A stretch of 64,000 nt of DNA, from assembly GCA_963815325.1 (NCBI GenBank), contig CAWFGG010000002.1:773472-837471 (forward strand). Reading direction: 5' to 3'. Shown here piece by piece: positions 50,405 through 62,880 of the stretch; position 1 is the first letter of the stretch, and the number at the start of each line of letters is the position of its first letter. A program made the position numbers and the translations under genes. This DNA is from an uncultured Gemmatimonadales bacterium (GTDB lineage Bacteria; Gemmatimonadota; Gemmatimonadetes; Gemmatimonadales; GWC2-71-9). The notes beneath the pieces were generated by a model, which was not told the origin of the DNA, searched no databases, and saw only the letters and a list, made by a program, of their open reading frames with translations.

Positions 50405-50812
50405 ATGAACCAATCGATCATTCATGTGGCGCTGGTTGTTCGCGACTACGACGAAGCCATCGAGTTCTTCTGCCACAGACTGCATTTTACGCTGGTCGAA
50501 GACTCCTACCAGCCCGAGCAGGACAAACGCTGGGTCGTCGTCGCTCCACCCGGCTCCCGCGGCACCAACCTGCTGTTGGCTCGAGCCTCGACCCCGGAGC
50601 AGGCTGCGTTCATTGGCCGCCAGACCGGTGGCCGGGTGTTCTTGTTCCTCCAGACCGACGACTTTAGGCGTGACTACGATGCGATGCGCTCTGCCGGCAT
50701 TCGCTTCGTCAGGAAGCCGATCAAAGAACCGTACGGCACGGTGGCGGTGTTCGAGGATCTGTACGGGAATCTATGGGACCTGCTCGAGCCGACGAAGCAG
50801 GAGGCCACCTAG
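50405..50812 (+). CDS. VOC (glyoxalase/bleomycin-resistance/dioxygenase) family protein
   Basis: 135 aa. IIHVALVVRDYDEAIEFF...PYGTVAVFEDLYGNLWDLLE. Confidence 0.8.
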   Translation: MNQSIIHVALVVRDYDEAIEFFCHRLHFTLVEDSYQPEQDKRWVVVAPPGSRGTNLLLARASTPEQAAFIGRQTGGRVFLFLQTDDFRRDYDAMRSAGIRFVRKPIKEPYGTVAVFEDLYGNLWDLLEPTKQEAT

Positions 50813-52432: not shown

Positions 52433-52843
52433 ATGAAGACACTCAATCCCTACCTCATGTTCTCCGGCAATTGCCGCGAAGCCCTGACGTTCTATCAGGA
52501 ATGCCTGGGCGGCGACATCGTGTCGTTGCAGACCTATTCAGACTCGCCGCTCGGTGTGCCCGACGAACATGGCCATCGGATATTCAACGCGGTATTTCGC
52601 GCCGACGACCTGCTCCTCAGGGCGTCCGACGATATGCCGAGCCATCCGGTGACCCGAGGAAGCAACTTCGCCCTCTTCGTTGCGTTCTCGGACAAGGAAG
52701 AACAGGAACGGAGCTTTGCCGCGCTCTCGACGGGCGGGAAGATCTCCTTCCCGCTTGCAAACGGGTTCGGCATGCTCACCGACAAGTTCGGGATTCAGTG
52801 GATGTTGGCGCTGAAGGCAGCTAGCCTAGCCTTCACCCGCTAG
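52433..52843 (+). CDS. PhnB-like VOC-superfamily protein
   Basis: LNPYLMFSGNCREALTFYQECLGG...FGMLTDKFGIQWML is typical of PhnB / 3-demethylubiquinone methyltransferase-domain proteins. Confidence 0.75.
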   Translation: MKTLNPYLMFSGNCREALTFYQECLGGDIVSLQTYSDSPLGVPDEHGHRIFNAVFRADDLLLRASDDMPSHPVTRGSNFALFVAFSDKEEQERSFAALSTGGKISFPLANGFGMLTDKFGIQWMLALKAASLAFTR

Positions 52844-52871
52844 AGGTCGTGGCCAGCCTCCACGGAGATAT

Positions 52872-53081
52872 ATGGGCGAACCGGTTGTCGTTGGATTCGC
52901 GGTTCTGGCAGTCGTCGGCATCGCCCTCGTCCTGGTGGGTGCCGTTCGGCGTGCCGTCAATCTCATGGTGGTCGGGTCGGCCATCCTGCTCGCCATTGCC
53001 GGAGCCTGGATGCTGGGCCCCGTCGGCGCTTTGGTGGGACTGCTGGCCTTCGGATTCCTGAGACGCGGCCCCCGCTCGTGA
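52872..53081 (+). CDS. small two-TM membrane protein (69 aa)
   Basis: Hydrophobic ORF MGEPVVVGFAVLAVVGIALVLVGAVRR...LAIAGAWMLGPVGALVGLLAFGFL. No family recognised. Confidence 0.4.
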   Translation: MGEPVVVGFAVLAVVGIALVLVGAVRRAVNLMVVGSAILLAIAGAWMLGPVGALVGLLAFGFLRRGPRS

Positions 53082-53139
53082 GCTTCACTGCTTACTGAAG
53101 TGAGAGGGGGCCGGGCGGTCGTCTCAGGATGGTACCGCG

Positions 53140-53529
53140 CTACTGCAAGTTGGCCATCACGTGCTCCCACGCCTCGCTCAGCACCGGATACTCCGCCAGC
53201 TTCATCATCTGGGCCGCCGCTTTGCTCTGGAATTCTCGTCCGTCCGCACCGTACTTCTCGGCGATTTCCTGCATTTGCTCCCTCGTCGGCGGCGGTAGTT
53301 TCTTGACCTGCGCAACGACGTCGGCCATGCGTGTTCCCAACGCCTCGATCTCCGAGGCCGCCTTCTCGGCCGATGCCTGGTCCTTGACTCCCTCGAGAAC
53401 GTCGACCATCTCCTCCATGATTTCGGCCTGCGCCTCCATCGCGTCTTCATAGGAACTGATACCGCCGCCGCCACACGAAACAGATAACACACTTACAACC
53501 GCTGCCATCAGAATTCGCCGCATGTTCAT
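53140..53529 (-). CDS. lipoprotein, helical hypothetical
   Basis: MNMRRILMAAVVSVLSVSCGGG lipobox, with an acidic helical body. Confidence 0.6.
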   Translation of the reverse strand: MNMRRILMAAVVSVLSVSCGGGGISSYEDAMEAQAEIMEEMVDVLEGVKDQASAEKAASEIEALGTRMADVVAQVKKLPPPTREQMQEIAEKYGADGREFQSKAAAQMMKLAEYPVLSEAWEHVMANLQ

Positions 53530-54055
53530 TTCTCCTCAGAAGATACTTCGCAGTGTACTGTCGCCGACCGGTACCGGCAACACGGACCACCGGCGAGGAT
53601 TCCGACCCTGGGACGGGACCCCGATCAAGGCTTGCTCGACTGGGAGAGAGCGCGTTGATTCGAGTGGAGCGTGCCCCGAAGTGGCCACCCTAAGCCTGCG
53701 GCTCCTACCTACGACGATGATACCTCGTTTGTTGCCCGACCGCGGCATCGCGTTGGCCTGGGCGATCAACACCGGAGAAAGCCCGCGCGGTCTGGCCGAG
53801 CAGTTGATGGAGCGAACCTGGTCGGAGTTGTCCCGGGTCCTCTTAGAGCCGAGCAGGTAGCTCCGCAGAGCGGCTGGAGGCCGCGCCCCATGCACGCCAA
53901 ATGCCGACAATGATGGTCGATATTGGCACATGACTTCTGGTTGTCGCGGTTTTCAGCCTTTCTTTAAGCATGCAGTGCTATGATGAATGTGCGCCGGTGA
54001 CGCATTTGTGCGCGTCCGGTGCTGATGGCGGACATCCGCAGGGGGGAGGCCGATC

Positions 54056-54475
54056 ATGCCTGCCACGGAAGCCCGTTCGACGACGAAGACGATCCTGGTC
54101 ATCGACGACGACGACGACTTCACGACGGCCGTGCGCTCCGTGCTCGAGGGTGAGAACTACACGGTGGTCGTGGCCGATTCGGGCGCCGAGGGGCTGCAAC
54201 AGCTCCGCGCGTCCAAACCCGACCTGATCATCCTAGACATCATGATGGAAACCACGACCGAAGGGTACGGTGTCAACGAGGCGATCAAGTACTCGGACCA
54301 GTACGCCGCCTTTCAGCAGACGCCGATCATCATGGTGTCGTCGATCCAGGAGTCGCCCGACGACCTGTACCCGCGGGCTCCCGAGGTGGACATGATCCGC
54401 CCGGATCGTTACATGACGAAGCCGCTCGACGTTCCCAAGTTCCTGGAGATCGTCCGGCAGACGCTGCGTCGCTAG
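54056..54475 (+). CDS. stand-alone response-regulator receiver protein (atypical long beta4-alpha4 region)
   Basis: ILVIDDDDDF, the phospho-acceptor context LIILDIMME, and YMTKP. GGGGGGAGG precedes the ATG. Confidence 0.8.
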   Translation: MPATEARSTTKTILVIDDDDDFTTAVRSVLEGENYTVVVADSGAEGLQQLRASKPDLIILDIMMETTTEGYGVNEAIKYSDQYAAFQQTPIIMVSSIQESPDDLYPRAPEVDMIRPDRYMTKPLDVPKFLEIVRQTLRR

Positions 54476-54544
54476 CGCGCCACCCTGAGCGGGACACCCG
54501 CGCCGCCCGCCGTCGGTACGTGTGCCGCGGGGAGGGGGACGGGT

Positions 54545-55693
54545 ATGGTGGAGGTCGCGGGGGAGCTGGGGACCGTGGTCGTCATCGACGACGATTACGC
54601 GATGCGCCTGTCTTGCGAGCAGGCGCTCACCCGCGTCGGGTATAGGGTCGAGACCTTCGCGGACGGCGCCCAAGGGCTCGAGGCCGTAAGCACGTGCCAG
54701 CCCGGACTGGTGCTGGTCGACCTCAAGATGCCCGGGCTCAGCGGCCTCGACGTCATCAGTCGGCTGCATCAGATCGATCCCACCATCACCATCGTCGTCA
54801 TCACCGGCTATGCCACGATCGGCACCGCGGTGGACGCCATGCAGGCGGGCGCGTACGACTTCCTGCCCAAGCCGTTCTCCCCCGACGAGCTCAGGCTGAT
54901 CGTGCGGCGCGGCTTCGAGCGGCGGCGGCTCCAGTTGGACACGCGGGCCTGCGAGTTGGAGCGCGAACTGCAGCGTCGCAGGTTCGTGACCTTCGTGTCG
55001 CACCAGCTGAAAACACCCCTCGTAGCCGTACACCAATACCTCGATGTCCTGCGCACGATGGGCGACATGCCCGGGGACGCGGCGAAGCGCCAGGAATGGC
55101 TCGCCCGGTGTTTAGCCCGGACCGAGGAACTGCACCGGCTGATCGACGATTGGCTCACCCTTGCCCAGCTCGAGGGGGGCACCCTGGGCCGCCAGCACAC
55201 CCAAGTGGATCTCCGGCAGGTCCTGGAACAGATCACCACGACCTATGAACCACTGGCAGTCCGCCAGGACCTCGCGCTCACCTGCGAGCTGCCGGCGGAG
55301 CCGTGCGCGGTCCGCGGCGATCCGACCTGCATCGGTGTCCTGTTCGACAACCTCATAACGAATGCCCTCAAGTACAACAGGCCCGGCGGGCGGGTGTGCG
55401 TCCGGGCGGTCACGCAACCAGGCGAGATCGTGGTGGAGGTCGTGGATACGGGTATCGGCATACCCTCCTCCGCACTCCCGTTCGTGTTCGACGAGTTCTA
55501 CCGCGTCCGGCAGCCCGGCAAGCGCAAGGTCGAAGGCACCGGCCTCGGGCTCCCGATCTGCCGCCGGATCGCGGCGGAGCTCGGCGGCGTCATCGAGGTG
55601 GAAAGTACCGAGGGCAAGGGGTCGACGTTCTCCGTTCGTCTCCCGGCGTCCACCGTCGGTGACGAGGCCTCAGAAACGGAGCTGTCCGCATGA
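54545..55693 (+). CDS. hybrid receiver-histidine kinase (REC-HisKA-HATPase_c)
   Basis: VVVIDDD...LVLVDLKMPGLSG...LPKPF, then the H-box FVSHQLKTPL, the N-box ITNALKYN, and DTGIGIP, GTGLGLPI. Confidence 0.85.
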   Translation: MVEVAGELGTVVVIDDDYAMRLSCEQALTRVGYRVETFADGAQGLEAVSTCQPGLVLVDLKMPGLSGLDVISRLHQIDPTITIVVITGYATIGTAVDAMQAGAYDFLPKPFSPDELRLIVRRGFERRRLQLDTRACELERELQRRRFVTFVSHQLKTPLVAVHQYLDVLRTMGDMPGDAAKRQEWLARCLARTEELHRLIDDWLTLAQLEGGTLGRQHTQVDLRQVLEQITTTYEPLAVRQDLALTCELPAEPCAVRGDPTCIGVLFDNLITNALKYNRPGGRVCVRAVTQPGEIVVEVVDTGIGIPSSALPFVFDEFYRVRQPGKRKVEGTGLGLPICRRIAAELGGVIEVESTEGKGSTFSVRLPASTVGDEASETELSA

Positions 55694-56109
55694 CGCCCAG
55701 CGGTCGCATTCTCGTGGTGGACGACGATCGGGATTTCGTGCAGGCGCTCACCGCGCTGCTGGAGCGGCACGGCTACGAGGTCCTGTGCGCATACGACGGA
55801 CGGACGGGGGTGCTCCGGGCGCGGCGCGAGGCCCCGGACCTGATCCTGGTGGACGTGATGATGGACGAGCGGACCGAGGGCTTCTTCGTGGTCCAGGAGC
55901 TGCGCCGGGTGCCGGAGCTCGAAGGGGTGCCGATCTTCGTTGTGAGCGCGGTCTACGAGCAAGTCCCGGAATTCCAGGTGCCTCCCGACCGTGCGTGGCT
56001 GCCGTACGACGCCTTCTTCCGCAAACCCATCGACCCGGAGGCCCTGCTCGCCCAAATCCGCGAGGCATTGGCCGCGCGCAGCGCGACCCCGCCGGAGGCG
56101 CGCCCGTGA
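55690..56109 (+). CDS. stand-alone response-regulator receiver protein (paralogue of 54056..54475)
   Basis: ILVVDDDRDF, LILVDVMMDERTEG, FFRKP. ATGA overlap with the upstream stop; its own stop overlaps the next start. Confidence 0.8.
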   Translation: MTPSGRILVVDDDRDFVQALTALLERHGYEVLCAYDGRTGVLRARREAPDLILVDVMMDERTEGFFVVQELRRVPELEGVPIFVVSAVYEQVPEFQVPPDRAWLPYDAFFRKPIDPEALLAQIREALAARSATPPEARP

Positions 56110-57140
56110 AGACGCTTACATTGCCCAAAGAGCACCTGGACTTCTTCGCATCAGTCCTGCAGCAGTTTGGTGAGATCCATGGGCCCGTCGCCCAAGGCAA
56201 GCGATTCGTGTTTCGGCGGCTCCGCCGCTGGTCCGAGATCCGGCTCGATTACACCCGCACGATCCTACCGCCCAAAAAGTACTTCCTCCCCCCGCGTGAG
56301 TGCCTGTTCCGCTACCGGCGGCGCGAGGGCTACGTGCCGGAGACTGCGGGTCTCGAACGCCGCATCGTGCTGTTCGGCGTGCATGCCTGCGATATCTACG
56401 GCCTCAACATCCTGGATCAGGTCTTCGGCGGCCGCTATCCGGATCCATACTACCAGACGCGCCGGCGACACATTGCGGTGATCGGCGTCGACTGCACGCC
56501 CGATGAGCACTGCTTCTGCCGCTCAATGCGGGCGGACTTCGTCAGCGAAGGATTCGACCTGTTCTTTCAAGACCTGGGCGACCGCTACCTCGTGTTCGTC
56601 GGTACGGCGCTCGGAGACGACATGGCGCTGGCGACGGGGCCGCTGTTCCAGCCCACCAGCCGGGCGGACATAGAGGAATACAAGCGGCGCTCCGCCGCGA
56701 GAGAGGACGCGTTCCGGCTCGAGGCGGAGATCCGGGACCTGCCGGAAATCTTCGAGCTCGAGTACGAAAGCGACCTCTGGCAGCAGCTCGGTGAGCGGTG
56801 CCTCGGCTGCGGTGCCTGCAGCATGGTCTGCCCGACCTGCTACTGCTACGACGTCGCCGACGAGGTCGAACTAGGCAGCGCCGACGGGACGCGCACCCGG
56901 GTGTGGGACAGCTGCCTATTTGCATCGCATGCCGCCGTGGCCGGCGGCGAGAATTTCCGCGCCAGCCGGGCGAGCCGTATCAAGTTCCGGTTTTATCACA
57001 AACAGCGTGGCTTCGTCGCGGAATATGGCCGCCCGAGCTGTGTCGGCTGCGGCCGCTGCCTCGAGGCCTGTCCCGCCGGCATCGACATCATCGAGGTCAT
57101 CGAACAGCTCCGGGAGGTCAAGCATGCCACGGCTGGCTGA
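56106..57140 (+). CDS. [NiFe]-hydrogenase group 3b-type beta subunit (HydB/HyhB, Fe-S)
   Basis: GTG 56106 within ORF 55362..57140. Motifs: CDIYGLNILD, CFCRSM, CLGCGACSMVCPTCYCYD, CVGCGRCLEACP. This is sulfhydrogenase-beta-like. Confidence 0.75.
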   Translation: MKTLTLPKEHLDFFASVLQQFGEIHGPVAQGKRFVFRRLRRWSEIRLDYTRTILPPKKYFLPPRECLFRYRRREGYVPETAGLERRIVLFGVHACDIYGLNILDQVFGGRYPDPYYQTRRRHIAVIGVDCTPDEHCFCRSMRADFVSEGFDLFFQDLGDRYLVFVGTALGDDMALATGPLFQPTSRADIEEYKRRSAAREDAFRLEAEIRDLPEIFELEYESDLWQQLGERCLGCGACSMVCPTCYCYDVADEVELGSADGTRTRVWDSCLFASHAAVAGGENFRASRASRIKFRFYHKQRGFVAEYGRPSCVGCGRCLEACPAGIDIIEVIEQLREVKHATAG

Positions 57141-57996
57141 GGCCCCCCTTTTCCGCCCGGTCTTGACGACGAACCCATATCAGCCGGCGACGGCGCACAT
57201 CGTCAGCATCCACCGCATGGTCGCTGACAACTACCTGTTCACACTGCGCTTCGCGGACGACCACCAGGCGGCGGCGTTCCGCCACCGACCCGGCCAATTC
57301 GTGATGCTGAGCGTGCCCGGCGCCGGCGAGGCACCAATCTCCATCTCATCGTCGCCCACGAGACCTGGAATGCTCGAGCTGTGCGTGCGCCGCGTCGGCC
57401 GGGTCACCAACGCACTCTACCGTCTGCAAGCTACCGACCACGTCGGGGTGCGAGGCCCGTACGGCAACGGGTTCCCAATCGAGCGGCTGGAGGGCGGTGA
57501 CCTGCTGCTGGTGGCAGGCGGGCTCGGCATGGCGCCCCTGCGGTCCCTGCTCTGGTACGCGCTCGACCGCCGGGACCAATTCGGCAGCGTGACGCTGATG
57601 TACGGCGTGAGGACCCCGGCGGACATGCTGTTTCGCGACGAGTTGGTTTCGCTCGCCGACCGCCCGGATCTGACCTGTCTCTTGACCGTCGATCGAGACC
57701 CGGCGGGCGGGTGGACCCAACAGATCGGACTCTTGCCCACCCTGTTCGATCGCGCGGCCCCGGACCCCCGAACCACTCACGCCGCCGTCTGCGGTCCGCC
57801 GGTCGTGTACCGGCTCGTGCTCGAGCGCCTGCTGGCCCTCGGGTTCTCGAAGGACCGTATCCTCATGTCGCTCGAACGCCGCATGAAATGCGGCGTCGGG
57901 AAGTGCGGCCACTGCAGCGTGGGCTACAAGTACACCTGCCTGCACGGACCGATCTTCACCTACTGGGACGCCATCAATCTGCCGGAGCTCGTATGA
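57124..57996 (+). CDS. [NiFe]-hydrogenase group 3b-type gamma subunit (HydG/HyhG, FAD/NAD(P)-binding, [2Fe-2S])
   Basis: RPGQFVMLSVPGAGEAPISISS, LLLVAGGLGMAPLRS, and the C-terminal CGVGKCGHC cluster. ATG 57124 overlaps the upstream gene. Confidence 0.75.
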   Translation: MPRLAEAPLFRPVLTTNPYQPATAHIVSIHRMVADNYLFTLRFADDHQAAAFRHRPGQFVMLSVPGAGEAPISISSSPTRPGMLELCVRRVGRVTNALYRLQATDHVGVRGPYGNGFPIERLEGGDLLLVAGGLGMAPLRSLLWYALDRRDQFGSVTLMYGVRTPADMLFRDELVSLADRPDLTCLLTVDRDPAGGWTQQIGLLPTLFDRAAPDPRTTHAAVCGPPVVYRLVLERLLALGFSKDRILMSLERRMKCGVGKCGHCSVGYKYTCLHGPIFTYWDAINLPELV

Positions 57997-58793
57997 GGCC
58001 CGACGAAGAGGCAACCGTCACGGCCGCTGCCCGACCCACCGTGGGGTTCGTGGGGCTCACCGGTTGCGCCGGCGACCAGCTCGTTGTGCTCGACTGCGAG
58101 GACGAGTTGCTCGACTTGGTTGCGCTCCTCGACGTCCGCGAGTTTCTCATGGCCGCGTCGGACGGCAATGGAACGAAGGCACCACTCGACATTGCCTTCG
58201 TCGAGGGCGCAGTGATGAGCCGCCGCGACGAGGAGACGCTCCGGCAGCTGCGCGAGCGGACCCGCTGCCTTGTCGCCATCGGGACGTGCGCCGTCTGGGG
58301 CGGCGTGGCCGCGCTCGACAGACTGTTCGATCGCGGGGCGTTGGTACGTGAGGTGTACGGAGACGTCGGGGCAGGATTCGACACCCTCCCGACGCGGGCG
58401 GTGCGGGACGTCGTTCCGGTCGACTACGCGATCACTGGGTGCCCGATCGAGCGGGACGAGTTCCTCTCCGCCGTCGCGCACCTGCTTCAGGGCAACCCGC
58501 CCCCGGTGCGAGACATCCCGGTGTGCGCCGAATGCCGGATGCGAGAGGTGGGCTGTCTCCTGGTGGACTGCGGCCTGCCGTGCTGCGGTGCCGTGACCGC
58601 CGGTGGCTGTAACGCCCGGTGTCCAGCCCTTGGCGTCCCGTGCGTCGGCTGCCGGGGACCGGCGTCCGACCCAAATATCGAGGCGGCACTCGCCGCCTTC
58701 GAGGCCCACGGCATCCCGCGCGATGACGCCGAGCGCCGGCTGCAGGTCTTCGCCCCGCTGCCCGTCGAGGCAGCCGTGGGGGAGCTTCGATGA
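57993..58793 (+). CDS. [NiFe]-hydrogenase small (delta) subunit
   Basis: GLTGCAGDQ, IGTCAVWGG, GCPIERDEF and CxxC-rich distal cluster motifs. ATGA overlap with the gamma subunit. Confidence 0.8.
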   Translation: MRPDEEATVTAAARPTVGFVGLTGCAGDQLVVLDCEDELLDLVALLDVREFLMAASDGNGTKAPLDIAFVEGAVMSRRDEETLRQLRERTRCLVAIGTCAVWGGVAALDRLFDRGALVREVYGDVGAGFDTLPTRAVRDVVPVDYAITGCPIERDEFLSAVAHLLQGNPPPVRDIPVCAECRMREVGCLLVDCGLPCCGAVTAGGCNARCPALGVPCVGCRGPASDPNIEAALAAFEAHGIPRDDAERRLQVFAPLPVEAAVGELR

Positions 58794-60091
58794 CGACACG
58801 CATCACGATCGACCATCTAGCGCGCGTCGAAGGGCACGGCGGTGTCACCGTCGAGCTCGACGGTGACAGGGTCCAGGCCGTACGGTTTGACATCTTCGAG
58901 GGAGCCCGATTGCTCGAGGGCCTCATCCGAGGACGGCGTTACGACGAGGTGGCCCCGATCGTGTCTCGGATCTGCGCGATCTGCTCTGCCGCACACACGC
59001 TCACATCCCTCGCGGCTACGGAACGGGCGTTCGGAATCGTCCCGAGCCCAGCCACCGAGCGCCTACGAGAGCTCCTGCTCCGCGGCGAGAACATCGAAAG
59101 CCACGCGCTGCACATCTTCCTGCTCGCGATTCCCGACTACTTCGGTGCGCCGAGCGCACTCGCGCTCGCGGCGGATCGACGCGAGGTCGTGGAGCTCGGC
59201 CTCCGTCTCAAGCAACTCGGCAACCGCATCCAAAGGACCGTCGCAGGCCGGGAGATCCACCCCGTGACGACGGTAGTCGGCGGATTCAGTGCCCACCCGG
59301 ACACTGAGAGCCTGTTGCACCTCCGCGCGGCCCTCCTCGACGGCCGGCGTGACGTGGCAACCGCCCTCGACGTCGTCGCGGCGCTGCCTGCCGCCGATGT
59401 GGGCCGGAGCCAGAGCGCCTACGCTGCGCTCCGAACCGTCGGCACGTACGGGTACAGCGGCGATGAGATCGCAATCGAAGGGGCCGGACCATCGGTTACC
59501 GTGCCGGTGCCGGCGTACCGAACGTTTGCGCAGGAGCGGACCGTGGCCCACTCACACGCCAAGCACAGTCTCTGGAACGGTACGCCGGTGATGGTGGGTG
59601 CGCTTGCGAGGCTCGTGGTGAACGGCTCGGCCCTGCCACCAACGGCACAACAGGCAGCCGAGCGGCTGGGCCTCGTGCCTCCGTTCGACGACCCGCTCGA
59701 TAACACCCGTGCCCAGATGGTCGAGATGGTCGCGGATGTCGACCATGCGCTCCAACTCGTCGAGCAGCTGCTTGCCGGCGGGGAGCCCTCGGAGCCGGCG
59801 CCACCGGTGACGACGCGCGCAGGCACGGGGACGGCAGCAGTGGAGGCGCCGCGCGGCCTGCTCGTACACAGCTACCGCTACGATCAGCACGGCCGGATCG
59901 TGGAGGCGGACGTCGTGACGCCCACCGCATTCAACGCCGCGAGTGTCGAGTATCGGCTGTGTCGCGCCGTTGAGCAGGCCACGGACCGGTCGCCCGATCC
60001 CCTCCGGCGGCGGCTCGAGATGCTCATCCGGGCCTACGATCCGTGTATTTCGTGCGCGGTACACGTGATCACCTGTCCCCGTGCGCCTTGA
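58790..60091 (+). CDS. [NiFe]-hydrogenase large (alpha) subunit
   Basis: 433 aa. N-terminal RICAICSAAH (RxCxxCxxxH) and C-terminal DPCISCAVH Ni-binding motifs, followed by a short 8-aa tail. Confidence 0.85.
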   Translation: MTTRITIDHLARVEGHGGVTVELDGDRVQAVRFDIFEGARLLEGLIRGRRYDEVAPIVSRICAICSAAHTLTSLAATERAFGIVPSPATERLRELLLRGENIESHALHIFLLAIPDYFGAPSALALAADRREVVELGLRLKQLGNRIQRTVAGREIHPVTTVVGGFSAHPDTESLLHLRAALLDGRRDVATALDVVAALPAADVGRSQSAYAALRTVGTYGYSGDEIAIEGAGPSVTVPVPAYRTFAQERTVAHSHAKHSLWNGTPVMVGALARLVVNGSALPPTAQQAAERLGLVPPFDDPLDNTRAQMVEMVADVDHALQLVEQLLAGGEPSEPAPPVTTRAGTGTAAVEAPRGLLVHSYRYDQHGRIVEADVVTPTAFNAASVEYRLCRAVEQATDRSPDPLRRRLEMLIRAYDPCISCAVHVITCPRAP

Positions 60092-62057
60092 CCTGCCGTT
60101 CCGCCGCCGGTCGCTCAGGGCCCGGCTGATTCTCAGCTATCTCGTGATCCTGGGCACCGGCGGCCTCATCACGTCGCTGGTCGGCTCGTGGATCGTCAGC
60201 ACGACGATCATGGCGCAGGCCCAAAACGCTGCGGAACACGACCTCTCGACGGCCCGCACGATCTTCGATGGAGAACTCGAGACCCTTCGGCAGGGGGTCA
60301 TGTTCACCGCACCCACGATCGGGGCAAGTGTCGACGGCGGCGGGATGGCCGCGGTGCGTGCCCGGCTCGCGGCCGTACAGGCGGACGCGGACTACGATTT
60401 TCTGTCGCTCACCGATGCGACCGGCCGTGTCATCGCGCGCGCAGCGCAACTGGACTCCACGGGCGACCAGGTCGCGGAGCTGCAGGTGGTGGGCGCCGCG
60501 TTGGCGGGCCGGGTCGTGGCGGGGGTGGAGATCGTGCCGACAGCGCTCCTCGCGCGCGAGGGCCCGGGCCTCGCGTCCCAAGCCATAATCCCGTTCGTCC
60601 CGACAGCGCACGCCCGCCCGGACGACCGCGACGCGGTGACCGACGGCCTCGTCCTGCTCGCCGCGGCCCCGGTCACGGACCACTCCGGCGCCGTCGTCGG
60701 CGCGCTCTATGGCGGCCGCCTGCTGAACCGCCGATTCGAACTGGTGGACCGGGTCTGGGAGCTGCTGTACCGCGGCGAGCAGTACCGCCGAGAGGACGTC
60801 GGGACCGTTACCGTCTTCCAGGGAGATGTGCGCATCGCGACGACGGTCCGGCAGCCCGACGGGACTCGCGCCGTGGGCACTCGTGTTTCCGCGCCGGTCC
60901 ACGCAGCCGTTTTGGAGCGAGGGGAGTCGTGGCGCGACCGCGCCTTCGTGGTAGACAACTGGTACATTGCCGCCTACGACCCGCTGCGCGATCTCAAGGG
61001 TGCAGTCGTGGGGATCCTGTACGTTGGCGTACTCGAGCGCGCGTATGCCTCGATCCGCGATCGCGTCATCCTCTCGTTCTTCGCCCTGGCCACAGTGGGG
61101 TTCCTGCTGATCATCGGCTTCACCTACGTCATGATCAGCAACCTGACCCGACCGATCGGCGAGATGGTGGCCGCGACGCGGAACATCGCCGCCGGTCGGC
61201 TCGATCAGGAGGTGCGGGGGGACGCGCAGGGTGAGCTGGCGCTACTAGCCGACTCGTTCAATACCATGCTCGCGAGTCTGCGGCAAATGAAGGGCGATCT
61301 CCAAGAATGGGGACACACGCTCGAAGAAAAGGTCGAGGAGCGCACCGACCAAGTGATGGCCATGCAGGTCCGCATGGCGCAGTCGGAGCGGCTCGCGTCA
61401 CTCGGTATGCTTGCGGCTGGCGTGGCACACGAGGTCAACAACCCTCTGGGCGGAATCCTGACCCTGACCGCTCTCGCCCTCGAGAATATGCCCGCCGACC
61501 ACCCGGACCGTCACAACCTCGAGGTCGTGCTCCAGCAGACCGAGCGGTGCCGGGACATCGTGAAGGGGCTGCTCGAGTTCTCGCGGCAGTCCGACGCGGC
61601 GATGGAGCAGCTCGACATCAACGCGGTGCTCGAGCAGACCCTCGCCCTAATCGCCGGCCAGTCGGCATTCTTCAATGTTACGTTGGTACGCGACTGGGCC
61701 GATGCCCTTCCGGCGGTGATGGGCGATCGGTCACAGCTGCAGCAGGTGTTTCTCAACATCGCCGTGAACGCCGCACAGGCGATGGACGAGCTGGGCACGA
61801 TTACGATCCGCACCCGCCCTGGCGCCGGCAACCGTTCCGTCGAAGTCGCGATCAGCGACACCGGATGCGGCATCCCGACGGAAGTCATCGATCACGTCTT
61901 CGATCCGTTCTTTACCACCCGGGAAGGTGGGCGCGGCACCGGCCTTGGCCTCGCCATCGCCTACGGCATTGTGACCCGGCACCACGGTCATATCAGTGTC
62001 TCCAGCGAAATGGGCCGGGGGACGACCTTCACCATCGAGCTGCCGGCGGCGAGTTGA
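60081..62057 (+). CDS. sensor histidine kinase (2 TM, Cache-like periplasmic domain, HAMP, HisKA, HATPase_c)
   Basis: GTG 60081 overlaps the hydrogenase large-subunit stop by 11 nt. HAMP region LTRPIGEMVAATRNIAAGRLD, H-box AGVAHEVNNPL, then DTGCGIP, GTGLGLAI. Confidence 0.85.
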   Translation: MRLDLPFRRRSLRARLILSYLVILGTGGLITSLVGSWIVSTTIMAQAQNAAEHDLSTARTIFDGELETLRQGVMFTAPTIGASVDGGGMAAVRARLAAVQADADYDFLSLTDATGRVIARAAQLDSTGDQVAELQVVGAALAGRVVAGVEIVPTALLAREGPGLASQAIIPFVPTAHARPDDRDAVTDGLVLLAAAPVTDHSGAVVGALYGGRLLNRRFELVDRVWELLYRGEQYRREDVGTVTVFQGDVRIATTVRQPDGTRAVGTRVSAPVHAAVLERGESWRDRAFVVDNWYIAAYDPLRDLKGAVVGILYVGVLERAYASIRDRVILSFFALATVGFLLIIGFTYVMISNLTRPIGEMVAATRNIAAGRLDQEVRGDAQGELALLADSFNTMLASLRQMKGDLQEWGHTLEEKVEERTDQVMAMQVRMAQSERLASLGMLAAGVAHEVNNPLGGILTLTALALENMPADHPDRHNLEVVLQQTERCRDIVKGLLEFSRQSDAAMEQLDINAVLEQTLALIAGQSAFFNVTLVRDWADALPAVMGDRSQLQQVFLNIAVNAAQAMDELGTITIRTRPGAGNRSVEVAISDTGCGIPTEVIDHVFDPFFTTREGGRGTGLGLAIAYGIVTRHHGHISVSSEMGRGTTFTIELPAAS

Positions 62058-62484
62058 GCTTTGCGGGCCGAGGGACAGTCCGAGAATGCCCTAGCCTGCT
62101 CAGTTTGGCGGGGTTCCGAATCGCCGGGGAGCAGATGGGCGGGCCCTTGTGACTTAGAAGAAGTGATTGAATTTTGCCGGAGCGGTGCAAACTGCTGACA
62201 CGAAACTCGCTCGTTGGACGGGCGCACTGGAGGCATAGCCAATACTTGAGCTACCTCACGCTTGGCTTCGCCCTGGCTGTGGCCCTCCCCGGTGATACCC
62301 TCGACGGCCAGTCGCCCATCGCACCCACAGACACCATTACCATCGACAAACCCACGCTCCTCGGCCTTATCCTCCTGGCCCCGGCTGCAGGTGGGTCAGA
62401 CGGTTCCCACTAACCCAGAGATTGCTAGTCGAACGTCCGCGGTTTCGAGCGCGAGTCTTGTACGGCACATCTCACGAGGACTCA

Positions 62485-62880
62485 ATGGACGACCACTCTC
62501 CATCCAATGTCGGCCTCTCACAGATCGGGCAGATCGCCGTTCCGGTCGGCGATATCGACCGGGCAGTCGCCTTCTACCGCGACACCCTTGGAATGCGATT
62601 CCTGTTCCAAGCACCGCCAGGTCTCGTTTTCTTCGACTGCGCCGGTATCCAGCTGATGCTGGATGGTCCGGGCAAGGCGCAGGCCAACAACTACAGCTCG
62701 GTCATCTACTACAAGGTCCCGGACCTTCACTTTGCCTGTGACAGGTTGAAGGCTCGCGGTGTCGTGTTCGACGCGGAGCCACATGTGATCGCGAAGCTGC
62801 CAGATCATGAACTCTGGATGGCGTTCTTCCGCGACCCGGACGAGAACGTCCTGGCGCTCATGAGTGAGGTTCGGGCGTAG
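62485..62880 (+). CDS. VOC family protein
   Basis: IGQIAVPVGDIDRAVAFYRDTLGM...MAFFRDPDENVLALM. Trimmed to ATG 62485. Confidence 0.75.
   Translation: MDDHSPSNVGLSQIGQIAVPVGDIDRAVAFYRDTLGMRFLFQAPPGLVFFDCAGIQLMLDGPGKAQANNYSSVIYYKVPDLHFACDRLKARGVVFDAEPHVIAKLPDHELWMAFFRDPDENVLALMSEVRA

Follow-up and report, generated by a model that had tools for sequence, protein, structure and literature searches.

A signalling cassette interleaved with the operon of a group 3b [NiFe]-hydrogenase, and its formate-sensor-like Cache kinase

Group 3b [NiFe]-hydrogenases rank with the most widespread enzymes of their kind in aquatic and soil bacteria, and Acidobacteriota and Gemmatimonadota are dominant, poorly cultured soil phyla. 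The physiological role and control of 3b enzymes outside archaea and mycobacteria are acknowledged as unresolved (e.g. PMC12342949). A 64,000-nucleotide stretch of contig CAWFGG010000002.1 from an uncultured Gemmatimonadales bacterium (the whole of which we call the window) poses this question in a concrete form: which signal, passing through which proteins, might govern a hydrogenase whose structural genes, hydBGDA, are preceded by genes for two stand-alone receivers (REC1 and REC2) and a REC-HisKA-HATPase kinase (the REC-kinase), and followed by a gene for a membrane-bound Cache-HAMP-HisKA-HATPase kinase (the Cache kinase; Table 1)? We conclude that these eight genes very probably constitute one functional unit. 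Our overall reading, in which a dedicated four-protein cascade couples an external formate-like signal to the co-transcribed 3b hydrogenase, is one to which we give even chances. The most informative feature of the locus, unseen by an earlier note made on this DNA, is a periplasmic module of the Cache kinase that resembles known formate sensors.

The locus and its conservation

The earlier note had described eight plus-strand open reading frames (ORFs), translationally coupled from the REC-kinase onwards, and their order, coordinates and overlaps are borne out: all are in frame, the junctions can be read directly, and the Pfam domains agree. The tetranucleotide ATGA lies at 55690-55693, 57993-57996 and 58790-58793 and GTGA at 56106-56109, while hydB and hydG overlap by 17 nucleotides (57124/57140) and hydA and the Cache kinase gene by 11 nucleotides (60081/60091). 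REC1 and the REC-kinase gene are separated by 69 nucleotides, matching the gap of about 70 given previously. A single translationally coupled unit from this kinase onwards is consistent with the sequence, in that a simple consensus scan of 53400-62500 yielded no promoter-like or plus-strand terminator-like sites, and the couplings are conserved. In 26 full-length relatives, with starts projected by homology, the REC2-to-hydB overlap is present in 24 (median -4 nucleotides) and the hydA-to-kinase overlap in 18 (median -11 nucleotides), and REC1 is nearly always followed by a gap (median +46 nucleotides). These gene overlaps are not due to chance.

Table 1. Features of the signalling-hydrogenase locus, numbered from the first nucleotide of the window (aa, amino acids; nt, nucleotides)
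Feature	Positions	Strand	Evidence and character
Candidate extended -10 promoter element (TGCTATGATG)	53976-53985	+	~70 nt 5' of REC1; unique in window; function predicted only
5'-leader block (GCTGATGGCGGACATCCGCA)	54021-54040 (approximate)	+	Directly before REC1 ribosome-binding site; kept in a three-way alignment of the window, L005 and L006
REC1, stand-alone receiver, 139 aa	54056-54475	+	Pfam Response_reg E 1.4e-17
REC-HisKA-HATPase kinase, 382 aa	54545-55693	+	Pfam domains
REC2, stand-alone receiver, 139 aa	55690-56109	+	Pfam Response_reg E 4e-16; 4-nt overlap with each neighbour
hydB, GTG start, 344 aa, group 3b beta subunit (4Fe-4S dicluster, AsrA-like)	56106-57140	+	NCBIfam ShyB E 8e-99, HydB E 5e-91; Pfam Fer4_22
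hydG, 290 aa, gamma subunit (FAD/NAD(P)-binding + 2Fe-2S)	57124-57996	+	NCBIfam PRK08345 E 1e-98, ShyC E 2e-82; Pfam NAD_binding_1, FAD_binding_6, DHODB_Fe-S_bind
hydD, 266 aa, [NiFe] small subunit (delta)	57993-58793	+	NCBIfam ShyD E 6.5e-56; Pfam Oxidored_q6
hydA, 433 aa, [NiFe] large subunit (alpha)	58790-60091	+	NCBIfam HydA E 1e-90; L1 RICAICSAAH, L2 DPCISCAVH, 8-residue tail after His
Cache-HAMP-HisKA-HATPase membrane sensor kinase, GTG start, 658 aa	60081-62057	+	Pfam sCache_3_3 E 8.7e-33, Cache_3-Cache_2, HAMP, HisKA, HATPase_c
TM2-adjacent Cache module, kinase residues 241-318	60801-61034	+	Formate-sensor-like pocket T244, F246, R251, T254, T267, Y299; floor Y314

The product of hydBGDA is almost certainly a bacterial group 3b (sulfhydrogenase-type) [NiFe]-hydrogenase. 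In line with the assignment originally proposed, every subunit is nearest to the sulfhydrogenase families HydB/G/D/A of NCBIfam (E 1e-51 to 1e-99), and the large subunit, in which both proposed Ni-binding motifs are present, falls within group 3. Among NCBIfam models HydA was matched by HydA (1e-90) and ShyA (6.5e-87) ahead of VhuA (2e-42) and FrhA (3e-38), and among PDB entries by the alpha chains of sulfhydrogenase I (9nez, 9e15 and 5yxy, E ~1e-85) ahead of MvhA (group 3c, 7e-50), FrhA (3a, 2e-41) and HoxH (3d, 2e-39). All equivalog cut-offs are missed (305 versus 880 bits for HydA, 331 versus 690 for ShyB, 277 versus 600 for ShyC and 190 versus 460 for ShyD), and the enzyme therefore represents a distant bacterial lineage of the same class and not an archaeal orthologue. 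The four-subunit 3b set is complete in one operon, comprising an AsrA-like Fe-S beta subunit, an AsrB-like FAD/NAD(P) gamma subunit, a small delta and a large alpha subunit, and the NAD_binding_1 and FAD_binding_6 domains of HydG predict NAD(P)-linked H2 metabolism. Residues C62, C65, C419, C422 and H425 of HydA are invariant in 16 relatives, whose tails after the terminal His comprise 0-11 residues. With eight residues, the tail in the window is as expected for this class, and the archaeal alpha chain of known structure (428 residues) aligns to within two residues of its end. As had been stated, the window holds no hyp maturation or endopeptidase genes, since tblastn with a relative's HypA/B/C/D/F and HycI as queries found no homologue in the 64 kb.

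How general this linkage is was assessed in the 80 species-representative genome loci closest in HydA (52-69% identity), onto which the eight proteins of the window were mapped with phmmer. At least 42 of the 80 have the same four signalling genes beside hydBGDA: 26 carry the full window arrangement and seven the same arrangement interrupted by a contig end, seven have hydBGDA-hycI followed by REC1, REC-kinase, REC2 and Cache kinase in one block, and two are other variants (module convergent downstream; REC1 not detected). Twelve loci were too short to call. The carriers include members of Gemmatimonadales, Longimicrobiales, Bryobacterales/Solibacteraceae, Terriglobales/Acidobacteriaceae and Krumholzibacteriia, together with one metagenome-assembled genome (MAG) labelled Planctomycetales. 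The nearest database relatives of HydA, at 69-71% identity, come from metagenomes and from Gemmatimonadales and Bryobacteraceae MAGs, and the same eight-gene order was found on contigs at 69% and 62% HydA identity. In a neighbour-joining tree of HydA the window arrangement occupies deep branches spanning Gemmatimonadota and Acidobacteriota, and the other two states are limited to one derived, mostly Bryobacteraceae clade. Within a large clade of 3b enzymes from Gemmatimonadota and Acidobacteriota, the signalling linkage is the usual condition and apparently the ancestral one. The earlier note had left it to a neighbourhood survey to decide whether the linkage is both common and already described; it is common in deposited MAGs, and a description in the literature was not found. 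The accompanying statement that 3b enzymes are not normally wired to dedicated two-component systems needs qualifying, since the linkage is usual in this clade and Hyd3 of Mycobacterium smegmatis, discussed below, is a precedent.

A gene for a hycI-type endopeptidase directly follows hydA in most relatives and follows the Cache kinase gene in many window-type copies, where that kinase gene, being positioned between hydA and hycI, lies inside the structural/maturation operon. Apart from hycI/hyp, no gene family was conserved within 10 kb, and specifically no DNA-binding regulator and no formate dehydrogenase; the all-against-all clustering of flanking ORFs was confounded by shadow ORFs in this high-GC DNA. 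The two kinases described as bracketing the hydrogenase, and the three receivers, are all present, but they are really parts of one four-gene module that also occurs contiguously downstream of hydA (seven genomes) or on a separate contig: in one Bryobacteraceae MAG, hydBGDA stands by itself (L010) while all four signalling genes lie side by side on a different contig (L086). Two members of the REC2 family, drawn from the protein database at 53-54% identity, both proved to lie in the module, which in one case stands alone (L085/L086) and in the other is beside hydBGDA, and a 36%-identical REC2-like protein (L088) lies outside it. Wider searches with REC2 were dominated by other receivers. In a phmmer search of 1.84 billion representatives, multi-receiver proteins filled the top of the list via summed scores, with about ten single-domain REC2-like clusters (44-55% identity) among the matches listed. 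In a metagenome scan with a REC2 alignment, generic receiver peptides (ILIVDDDxD, DLILVDVMM) drove the matches, and the 80 loci obtained were mostly unrelated receivers at <=45% identity, with partial module-like contexts in L096 and L122 only.

Three side observations concern the module and its relatives. Wherever the four signalling genes are contiguous, the hydrogenase-unlinked copy included, a protein of about 169 residues is encoded directly 5' of REC1 (L033:11771-12280, L053:7353-7853 and L085:5628-6137; also L045, L065 and L078). It has an N-terminal membrane helix and the conserved Cys motifs CPxTG, CSRWxER..C..CL, CxCCG and PVCWxCLVAETH, and matches nothing in Pfam or NCBIfam. Neither the window nor the loci arranged like it encode this protein. 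The 36%-identical receiver belongs to another cluster (L088:4782-8803), which encodes a Fer4-CCG-REC fusion, a PAS kinase and two stand-alone receivers beside an Rrf2 regulator and is thus a further case of receivers combined with a redox protein. At L096:3965-8866 (metagenome contig SDBU01011369.1), two tandem REC2-like receivers and a weakly REC-kinase-like gene are convergent to hydG-like and hydB-like (AsrAB-type) genes, which may represent a related receiver/oxidoreductase pairing outside the HydA clade.

Sensor module, receivers and a possible cascade

The Cache kinase is the sole transmembrane protein of the signalling set. Its hydrophobic segments, at about residues 15-40 and 327-356, form transmembrane segments TM1 and TM2, which enclose a bimodular periplasmic Cache region and are followed by HAMP, HisKA and HATPase domains, and its core is most like those of AtoS (4e-75) and ZraS. 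An AlphaFold (AF2) model of the first 350 residues, with a predicted local distance difference test score (pLDDT) of 87, has a long helix, then a PAS-like module at residues 107-214, then a second module at 241-318, and lastly TM2; the second module is better conserved than the first. The match to sCache_3_3 is full-length (profile positions 3-103 of 107) and that to Cache_3-Cache_2 is partial (E 3.3e-25, positions 100-194 of 299). A word-indexed protein search with the periplasmic domain gave 13 mostly fragmentary matches, common words swamping the candidates, and was of use only in supplying a shallow alignment from which to model the structure.

Across the whole PDB, the second module is matched in sequence only by the formate-bound ligand-binding domains of two chemoreceptors, 8py1 and 8py0, with E-values of 1.2e-6 and 5.5e-5 for the single sequence and of 5.5e-8 and 2.7e-7 for a profile of 24 orthologues. 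The same two structures gave the highest identity in Foldseek (20-23%), with a TM-score of about 0.6 on the target. In these domains formate is held by an Arg salt bridge (R118/R111, equivalent to R142 of PacF) and by hydrogen bonds from Thr (T105/T100) and Tyr (Y167/Y160), and the pocket contains two Phe residues, of which the floor Phe (F182/F175) excludes ligands larger than formate, as well as T145 and T158 of PacF (PMC11804620). The HMMER alignment maps the Arg to R251, the Thr to T244, the Tyr to Y299, one Phe to F246, the floor Phe to Y314 and T145/T158 of PacF to T254/T267. Except for the floor, the mapped residues are kept in 38-41 of 41-42 orthologues (F246 in 39 of 41). Because the Cache kinase keeps the formate-sensor pocket, although its floor is altered, a small carboxylate is predicted as its ligand, which we consider probable; that it should be formate specifically we consider somewhat less likely than not. 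The module thus resembles PacF and Atu0526 (8py0, 8py1) in its sCache_3_3 match, its Arg salt-bridge residue, its Thr/Tyr donors, one Phe and the two Thr known from PacF, with matching spacing throughout, and differs from them in its output, a histidine kinase in place of a chemoreceptor, in the Tyr at its floor, in the extra N-terminal PAS-like module and in its low identity (~20-23%). As a separate observation, an additional gene resembling that of the Cache kinase, with another receiver gene behind it, is present in some carriers, either upstream of the cassette (L055:1454-3837) or directly after hydA (L020:2520-4894), which indicates duplication or variation of the sensor arm.

The remaining signalling proteins retain the residues needed for phosphotransfer and lack the output domain that is fused to the receiver in classical two-component systems. 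D61 and S95 of REC1 (33 orthologues), D55 and K112 of REC2 (36 orthologues) and D59, T87, K109 and H153 of the REC-kinase (35 orthologues) are invariant, and both kinases have conserved H, N and G boxes. The REC-kinase has no hydrophobic segment and is soluble, with the N-terminal receiver as its sole input domain; this receiver is most like those of NtrC (5e-31), FixJ and AtoC, and the kinase core most like PhoR, PnpS and WalK. REC1 and REC2 are most like DivK-type receivers, PhoB, CseB, MtrA and YycF, and the next-best database relatives of REC2 are OmpR-family regulators. As originally described, they consist of a receiver domain only and are paralogues of each other (33% identity over 131 residues, compared with 30% over 60 residues to the REC-kinase receiver), although each family has its own conserved loop sequence and signature (lDiMME..eGY and SSI.esPDerfP....mIrPD.YlTKP in REC1; M.ERTEGFF in REC2). 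The unusual long insertion attributed to them was overstated: compared with PleD, REC2 is extended by one residue following the phospho-Asp and by four within the alpha-4 region, and relative to the Pfam receiver model REC1 is about 11 and REC2 about seven residues longer. Their real peculiarity, as modelled, is that a conserved non-helical loop replaces helix alpha-4. The AF2 model of REC2 (pLDDT 87) has a standard fold without this helix, residues 87-107 forming a loop (pLDDT ~55), and Foldseek matched the model to generic receivers of the OmpR/PleD/DivK type only, with no special relative among them. Database orthologues of REC2 range from 124 to 156 residues. In one Gemmatimonadota MAG (L057:6990-7110; JBDHDN010000064.1) hydA lacks a stop codon and continues in frame through 18 codons (LSRRRPRRSPSTVRGGTT) into REC1, whose ATG is preceded by a Shine-Dalgarno-like GAGAGGGGG; this read-through is unverified, and represents either an assembly error or a HydA-REC1 fusion from which the maturation endopeptidase would cleave the receiver.

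Taken together, these features suggest the following cascade. The membrane kinase would bind a very small carboxylate, with formate as the leading candidate, in its periplasmic sCache_3_3-type module, and its AtoS/NtrB-type core would phosphorylate the NtrC-type receiver at the N-terminus of the REC-kinase. This receiver, once phosphorylated, would switch the PhoR/WalK-type core of the same protein, which would in turn phosphorylate one or both of the OmpR/DivK-type receivers REC1 and REC2. The order is proposed because family resemblance forms two matched pairs of kinase and receiver, and it seems to us slightly more probable than not. Since the stand-alone receivers have no effector domain and their alpha4-beta5-alpha5 output face is remodelled, they would have to act by protein-protein contact. 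The conserved REC2/hydB coupling, the lack of any other conserved cis partner and the unverified read-through in L057 lead us to prefer, slightly and with considerable doubt, the hydrogenase or its maturation as the final target; an unlinked partner such as a transcription factor, or pure feedback on the kinases, is about as likely as the last step. In a more specific and rather unlikely version, the alpha-4-less receivers would be phosphorylation-dependent subunits or switches of the hydrogenase, through which external formate could gate its activity, direction or Ni-dependent maturation post-translationally, without a transcription factor. The read-through in L057 would suit release of a receiver from the large-subunit C-terminus, at which the maturation endopeptidase cuts, or docking of a receiver there.

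A number of observations weigh against this cascade, whether in its input, its order or its output. At the pocket floor, orthologues have Tyr (25), Ser (7), Ala (6), His (2), Gly (1) or Phe (1), and ligand specificity may differ because the residue that excludes larger ligands is a Tyr here. The module adjoins TM2, behind the extra PAS-like module, whereas its counterpart in PacF is membrane-distal, and formate-type Cache domains are found almost exclusively in chemoreceptors (PMC11804620). On a Gemmatimonadales chromosome (OY970192.1; L004/L009:11298-12572) the same cassette has a 424-residue HAMP-HisKA-HATPase kinase without any Cache domain, followed by a hycI-like gene. The pairing of kinases with receivers is a heuristic drawn from family resemblance and not a specificity-residue analysis, and gene adjacency fits a transfer from the Cache kinase to REC2 as well, since the REC-kinase and REC2 are always coupled and REC2 is beside the Cache kinase in the contiguous arrangement. 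The physical links between receivers and hydrogenase are limited to co-translation and the single unverified in-frame passage from hydA into REC1, and the operon structure is predicted from gene spacing alone. Finally, 26 of the 80 loci have no signalling gene in their 10-kb flanks.

Competing explanations and known systems

The alternative that survives best, a serious contender although we think it improbable, is an ordinary transcriptional circuit in which the cascade ends on an orphan DNA-binding regulator encoded elsewhere, or a receiver docks on a transcription or anti-sigma factor, and REC1 and/or REC2 are phosphate sinks or DivK-like kinase modulators that never touch the hydrogenase. 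In none of about 40 loci from two phyla does a conserved DNA-binding protein lie within 10 kb, yet the module can lie on a different contig from hydBGDA, so that action in trans is possible. Single-domain receivers are commonly sinks or kinase modulators, as established for CheY2 and DivK, but a sink needs no four-nucleotide overlap between REC2 and hydB of the kind kept in 24 of 26 loci. Cis evidence for contact between receiver and enzyme was not found, and in M. smegmatis, the source of the characterised bacterial 3b enzyme, control under hypoxia is exerted on the transcript (PMC2799521); the promoter region of the present operon, however, looks housekeeping-like and has no conserved sigma-54 element.

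Much less probable is a scheme in which the hydrogenase is itself the input and informs the kinases of H2 or of the NAD(P)H/NAD(P)+ state, much as the group 2b sensors HoxBC/HupUV inform HoxJ/HupT, with the cascade controlling genes elsewhere. The co-translation of hydrogenase and signalling genes and the lack of a locally encoded output would suit this scheme, as would the short HydA tail, a feature of regulatory hydrogenases that is nevertheless shared by the solved catalytic enzyme with its 428-residue chain. However, all four subunits are retained, the diaphorase pair included, with catalytic sulfhydrogenase as the best match, an endopeptidase gene accompanies the operon in most relatives, and neither kinase has a cytoplasmic PAS or other hydrogenase-docking domain; moreover, the high conservation of the periplasmic Cache module argues for an external input. 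The least probable explanation, a mobile or hitch-hiking two-component cluster without functional link to the hydrogenase, could appeal to the 26 relatives lacking signalling genes and to the three different arrangements, but is very hard to reconcile with a linkage kept over 52-69% HydA identity and across phyla, with four genes that stay together in all arrangements, with a kinase gene inserted between hydA and hycI, with the maintained overlaps of stop and start codons, with the genome in which hydBGDA stands alone and the module is carried elsewhere, and with the recurrence of the module around the REC2-family proteins sampled at 53-54% identity.

We therefore return to the cascade of sensor kinase, REC-kinase and stand-alone receivers, and compare it with known systems. 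Sulfhydrogenases I and II of Pyrococcus furiosus and Thermococcus kodakarensis (HydBGDA, ShyBCDA) share the four subunits, their order, the Ni-binding Cys motifs and the short C-terminal tail, and differ in that the subunits of the window score below the NCBIfam equivalog cut-offs. To our knowledge the archaeal operons do not contain two-component genes, and a full-text literature search found no paper on such genes there. HoxBC-HoxJ-HoxA of Cupriavidus necator and HupUV-HupT-HupR of Rhodobacter combine a group 2b sensor hydrogenase with a PAS-containing soluble kinase and an NtrC-type DNA-binding regulator, and are likewise hydrogenase-specific His-Asp pathways encoded with hydrogenase genes. 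The window, by contrast, encodes a full catalytic four-subunit 3b enzyme without the characters of group 2b, a periplasmic sensor, and no PAS, DNA-binding or AAA+ domain. FhlA of Escherichia coli is a cytoplasmic sigma-54 activator that binds formate directly, and hydrogenase 3 is a membrane-bound group 4a enzyme; together they are a precedent for formate switching on a hydrogenase, with no relation in sequence or mechanism.

Membrane kinases combined with a second kinase and with stand-alone receivers that have no effector domain and signal by protein-protein contact are known from RedCDEF of Myxococcus xanthus and DivJ/PleC-DivK of Caulobacter. In this they resemble the network proposed here, and the best NCBIfam model for REC1 and REC2 is the DVU0259/DivK-type family, at 56-60 bits against a cut-off of 160. 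The REC-HisKA-HATPase order and the alpha-4-less receivers are specific to the module in the window, which is tied to a metabolic enzyme and not to development or the cell cycle. DosR, for its part, belongs to the classical DNA-binding regulators and works with cytoplasmic haem kinases. The M. smegmatis 3b enzyme Hyd3/Hyh (msmeg_3931-3927) is induced at low O2 and encoded beside a DosR-like cluster, msmeg_3932-3955 (PMC2799521). Hyd3 is similar in that it is a bacterial 3b enzyme, comes from an aerobic soil organism and is expressed in response to a two-component system; the window differs in having two kinases, three receivers, a periplasmic Cache sensor and no DNA-binding domain, with the signalling genes interleaved with the structural genes.

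Two-component control of hydrogenases and control of a hydrogenase by formate are therefore already known. A full-text literature search found no publication describing a cassette of this kind, in which an output-less cascade of two kinases and three receivers is interleaved with a 3b operon and a formate-family Cache domain is carried on a kinase. Every carrier identified is a MAG, a possible reason for this silence. For Acidobacteriota and Gemmatimonadota the cassette offers a conserved regulatory module dedicated to a 3b enzyme, and hence a lead on the control of their hydrogen metabolism, together with a concrete ligand hypothesis (formate or another very small carboxylate) that is cheap to test. 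If the ligand were confirmed, extracellular fermentation products would be linked to H2 and NAD(P)H balancing, the formate-Cache family, defined only recently, would be extended from chemoreceptors to kinases, and a defined, four-protein, output-less phosphotransfer network with a searchable target would become available. If the receivers act directly on the enzyme, this would be a mode of hydrogenase control for which we know of no precedent.

Upstream region and flanking genes

Positions 53955-54040 of the window include two short blocks shared with the Gemmatimonadales loci L005 and L006 (~69% protein identity), the first being TTCAGCCTTyCTTyA...GTGCTATGATG, which is extended -10-like, and the second, in the leader, GCTGAyGGCGrC.AyCCrC. 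TATAAT-like 8-mers recur 5' of REC1 in nine of 33 loci, and a strict consensus scan found no sigma-70 site, the candidate -10 region included. The same 33 loci have no conserved sigma-54 -24/-12 element upstream of REC1, which makes an NtrC-type activator at this promoter unlikely; from its sequence, the region looks housekeeping-like. The 69-nucleotide gap between REC1 and the REC-kinase gene was considered as an attenuator and rejected, as it folds no better than its shuffles (z = +1.5), and no Rfam family was found at E <= 0.1 across 52800-62600.

The cassette is flanked by three small ORFs of the glyoxalase/VOC superfamily (50405-50812, 52433-52843 and 62422-62880), two of which have Pfam matches; their adjacency to the cassette is not kept in relatives. 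Immediately upstream of REC1, on the minus strand, the window has a 129-residue lipoprotein-like ORF without a Pfam match (53140-53529), and at the corresponding place a metagenome contig with 69% HydA identity (L001:1-4953) carries the unrelated, divergently oriented genes hycI-hypA-hypB-hypF-hypC-hypD.

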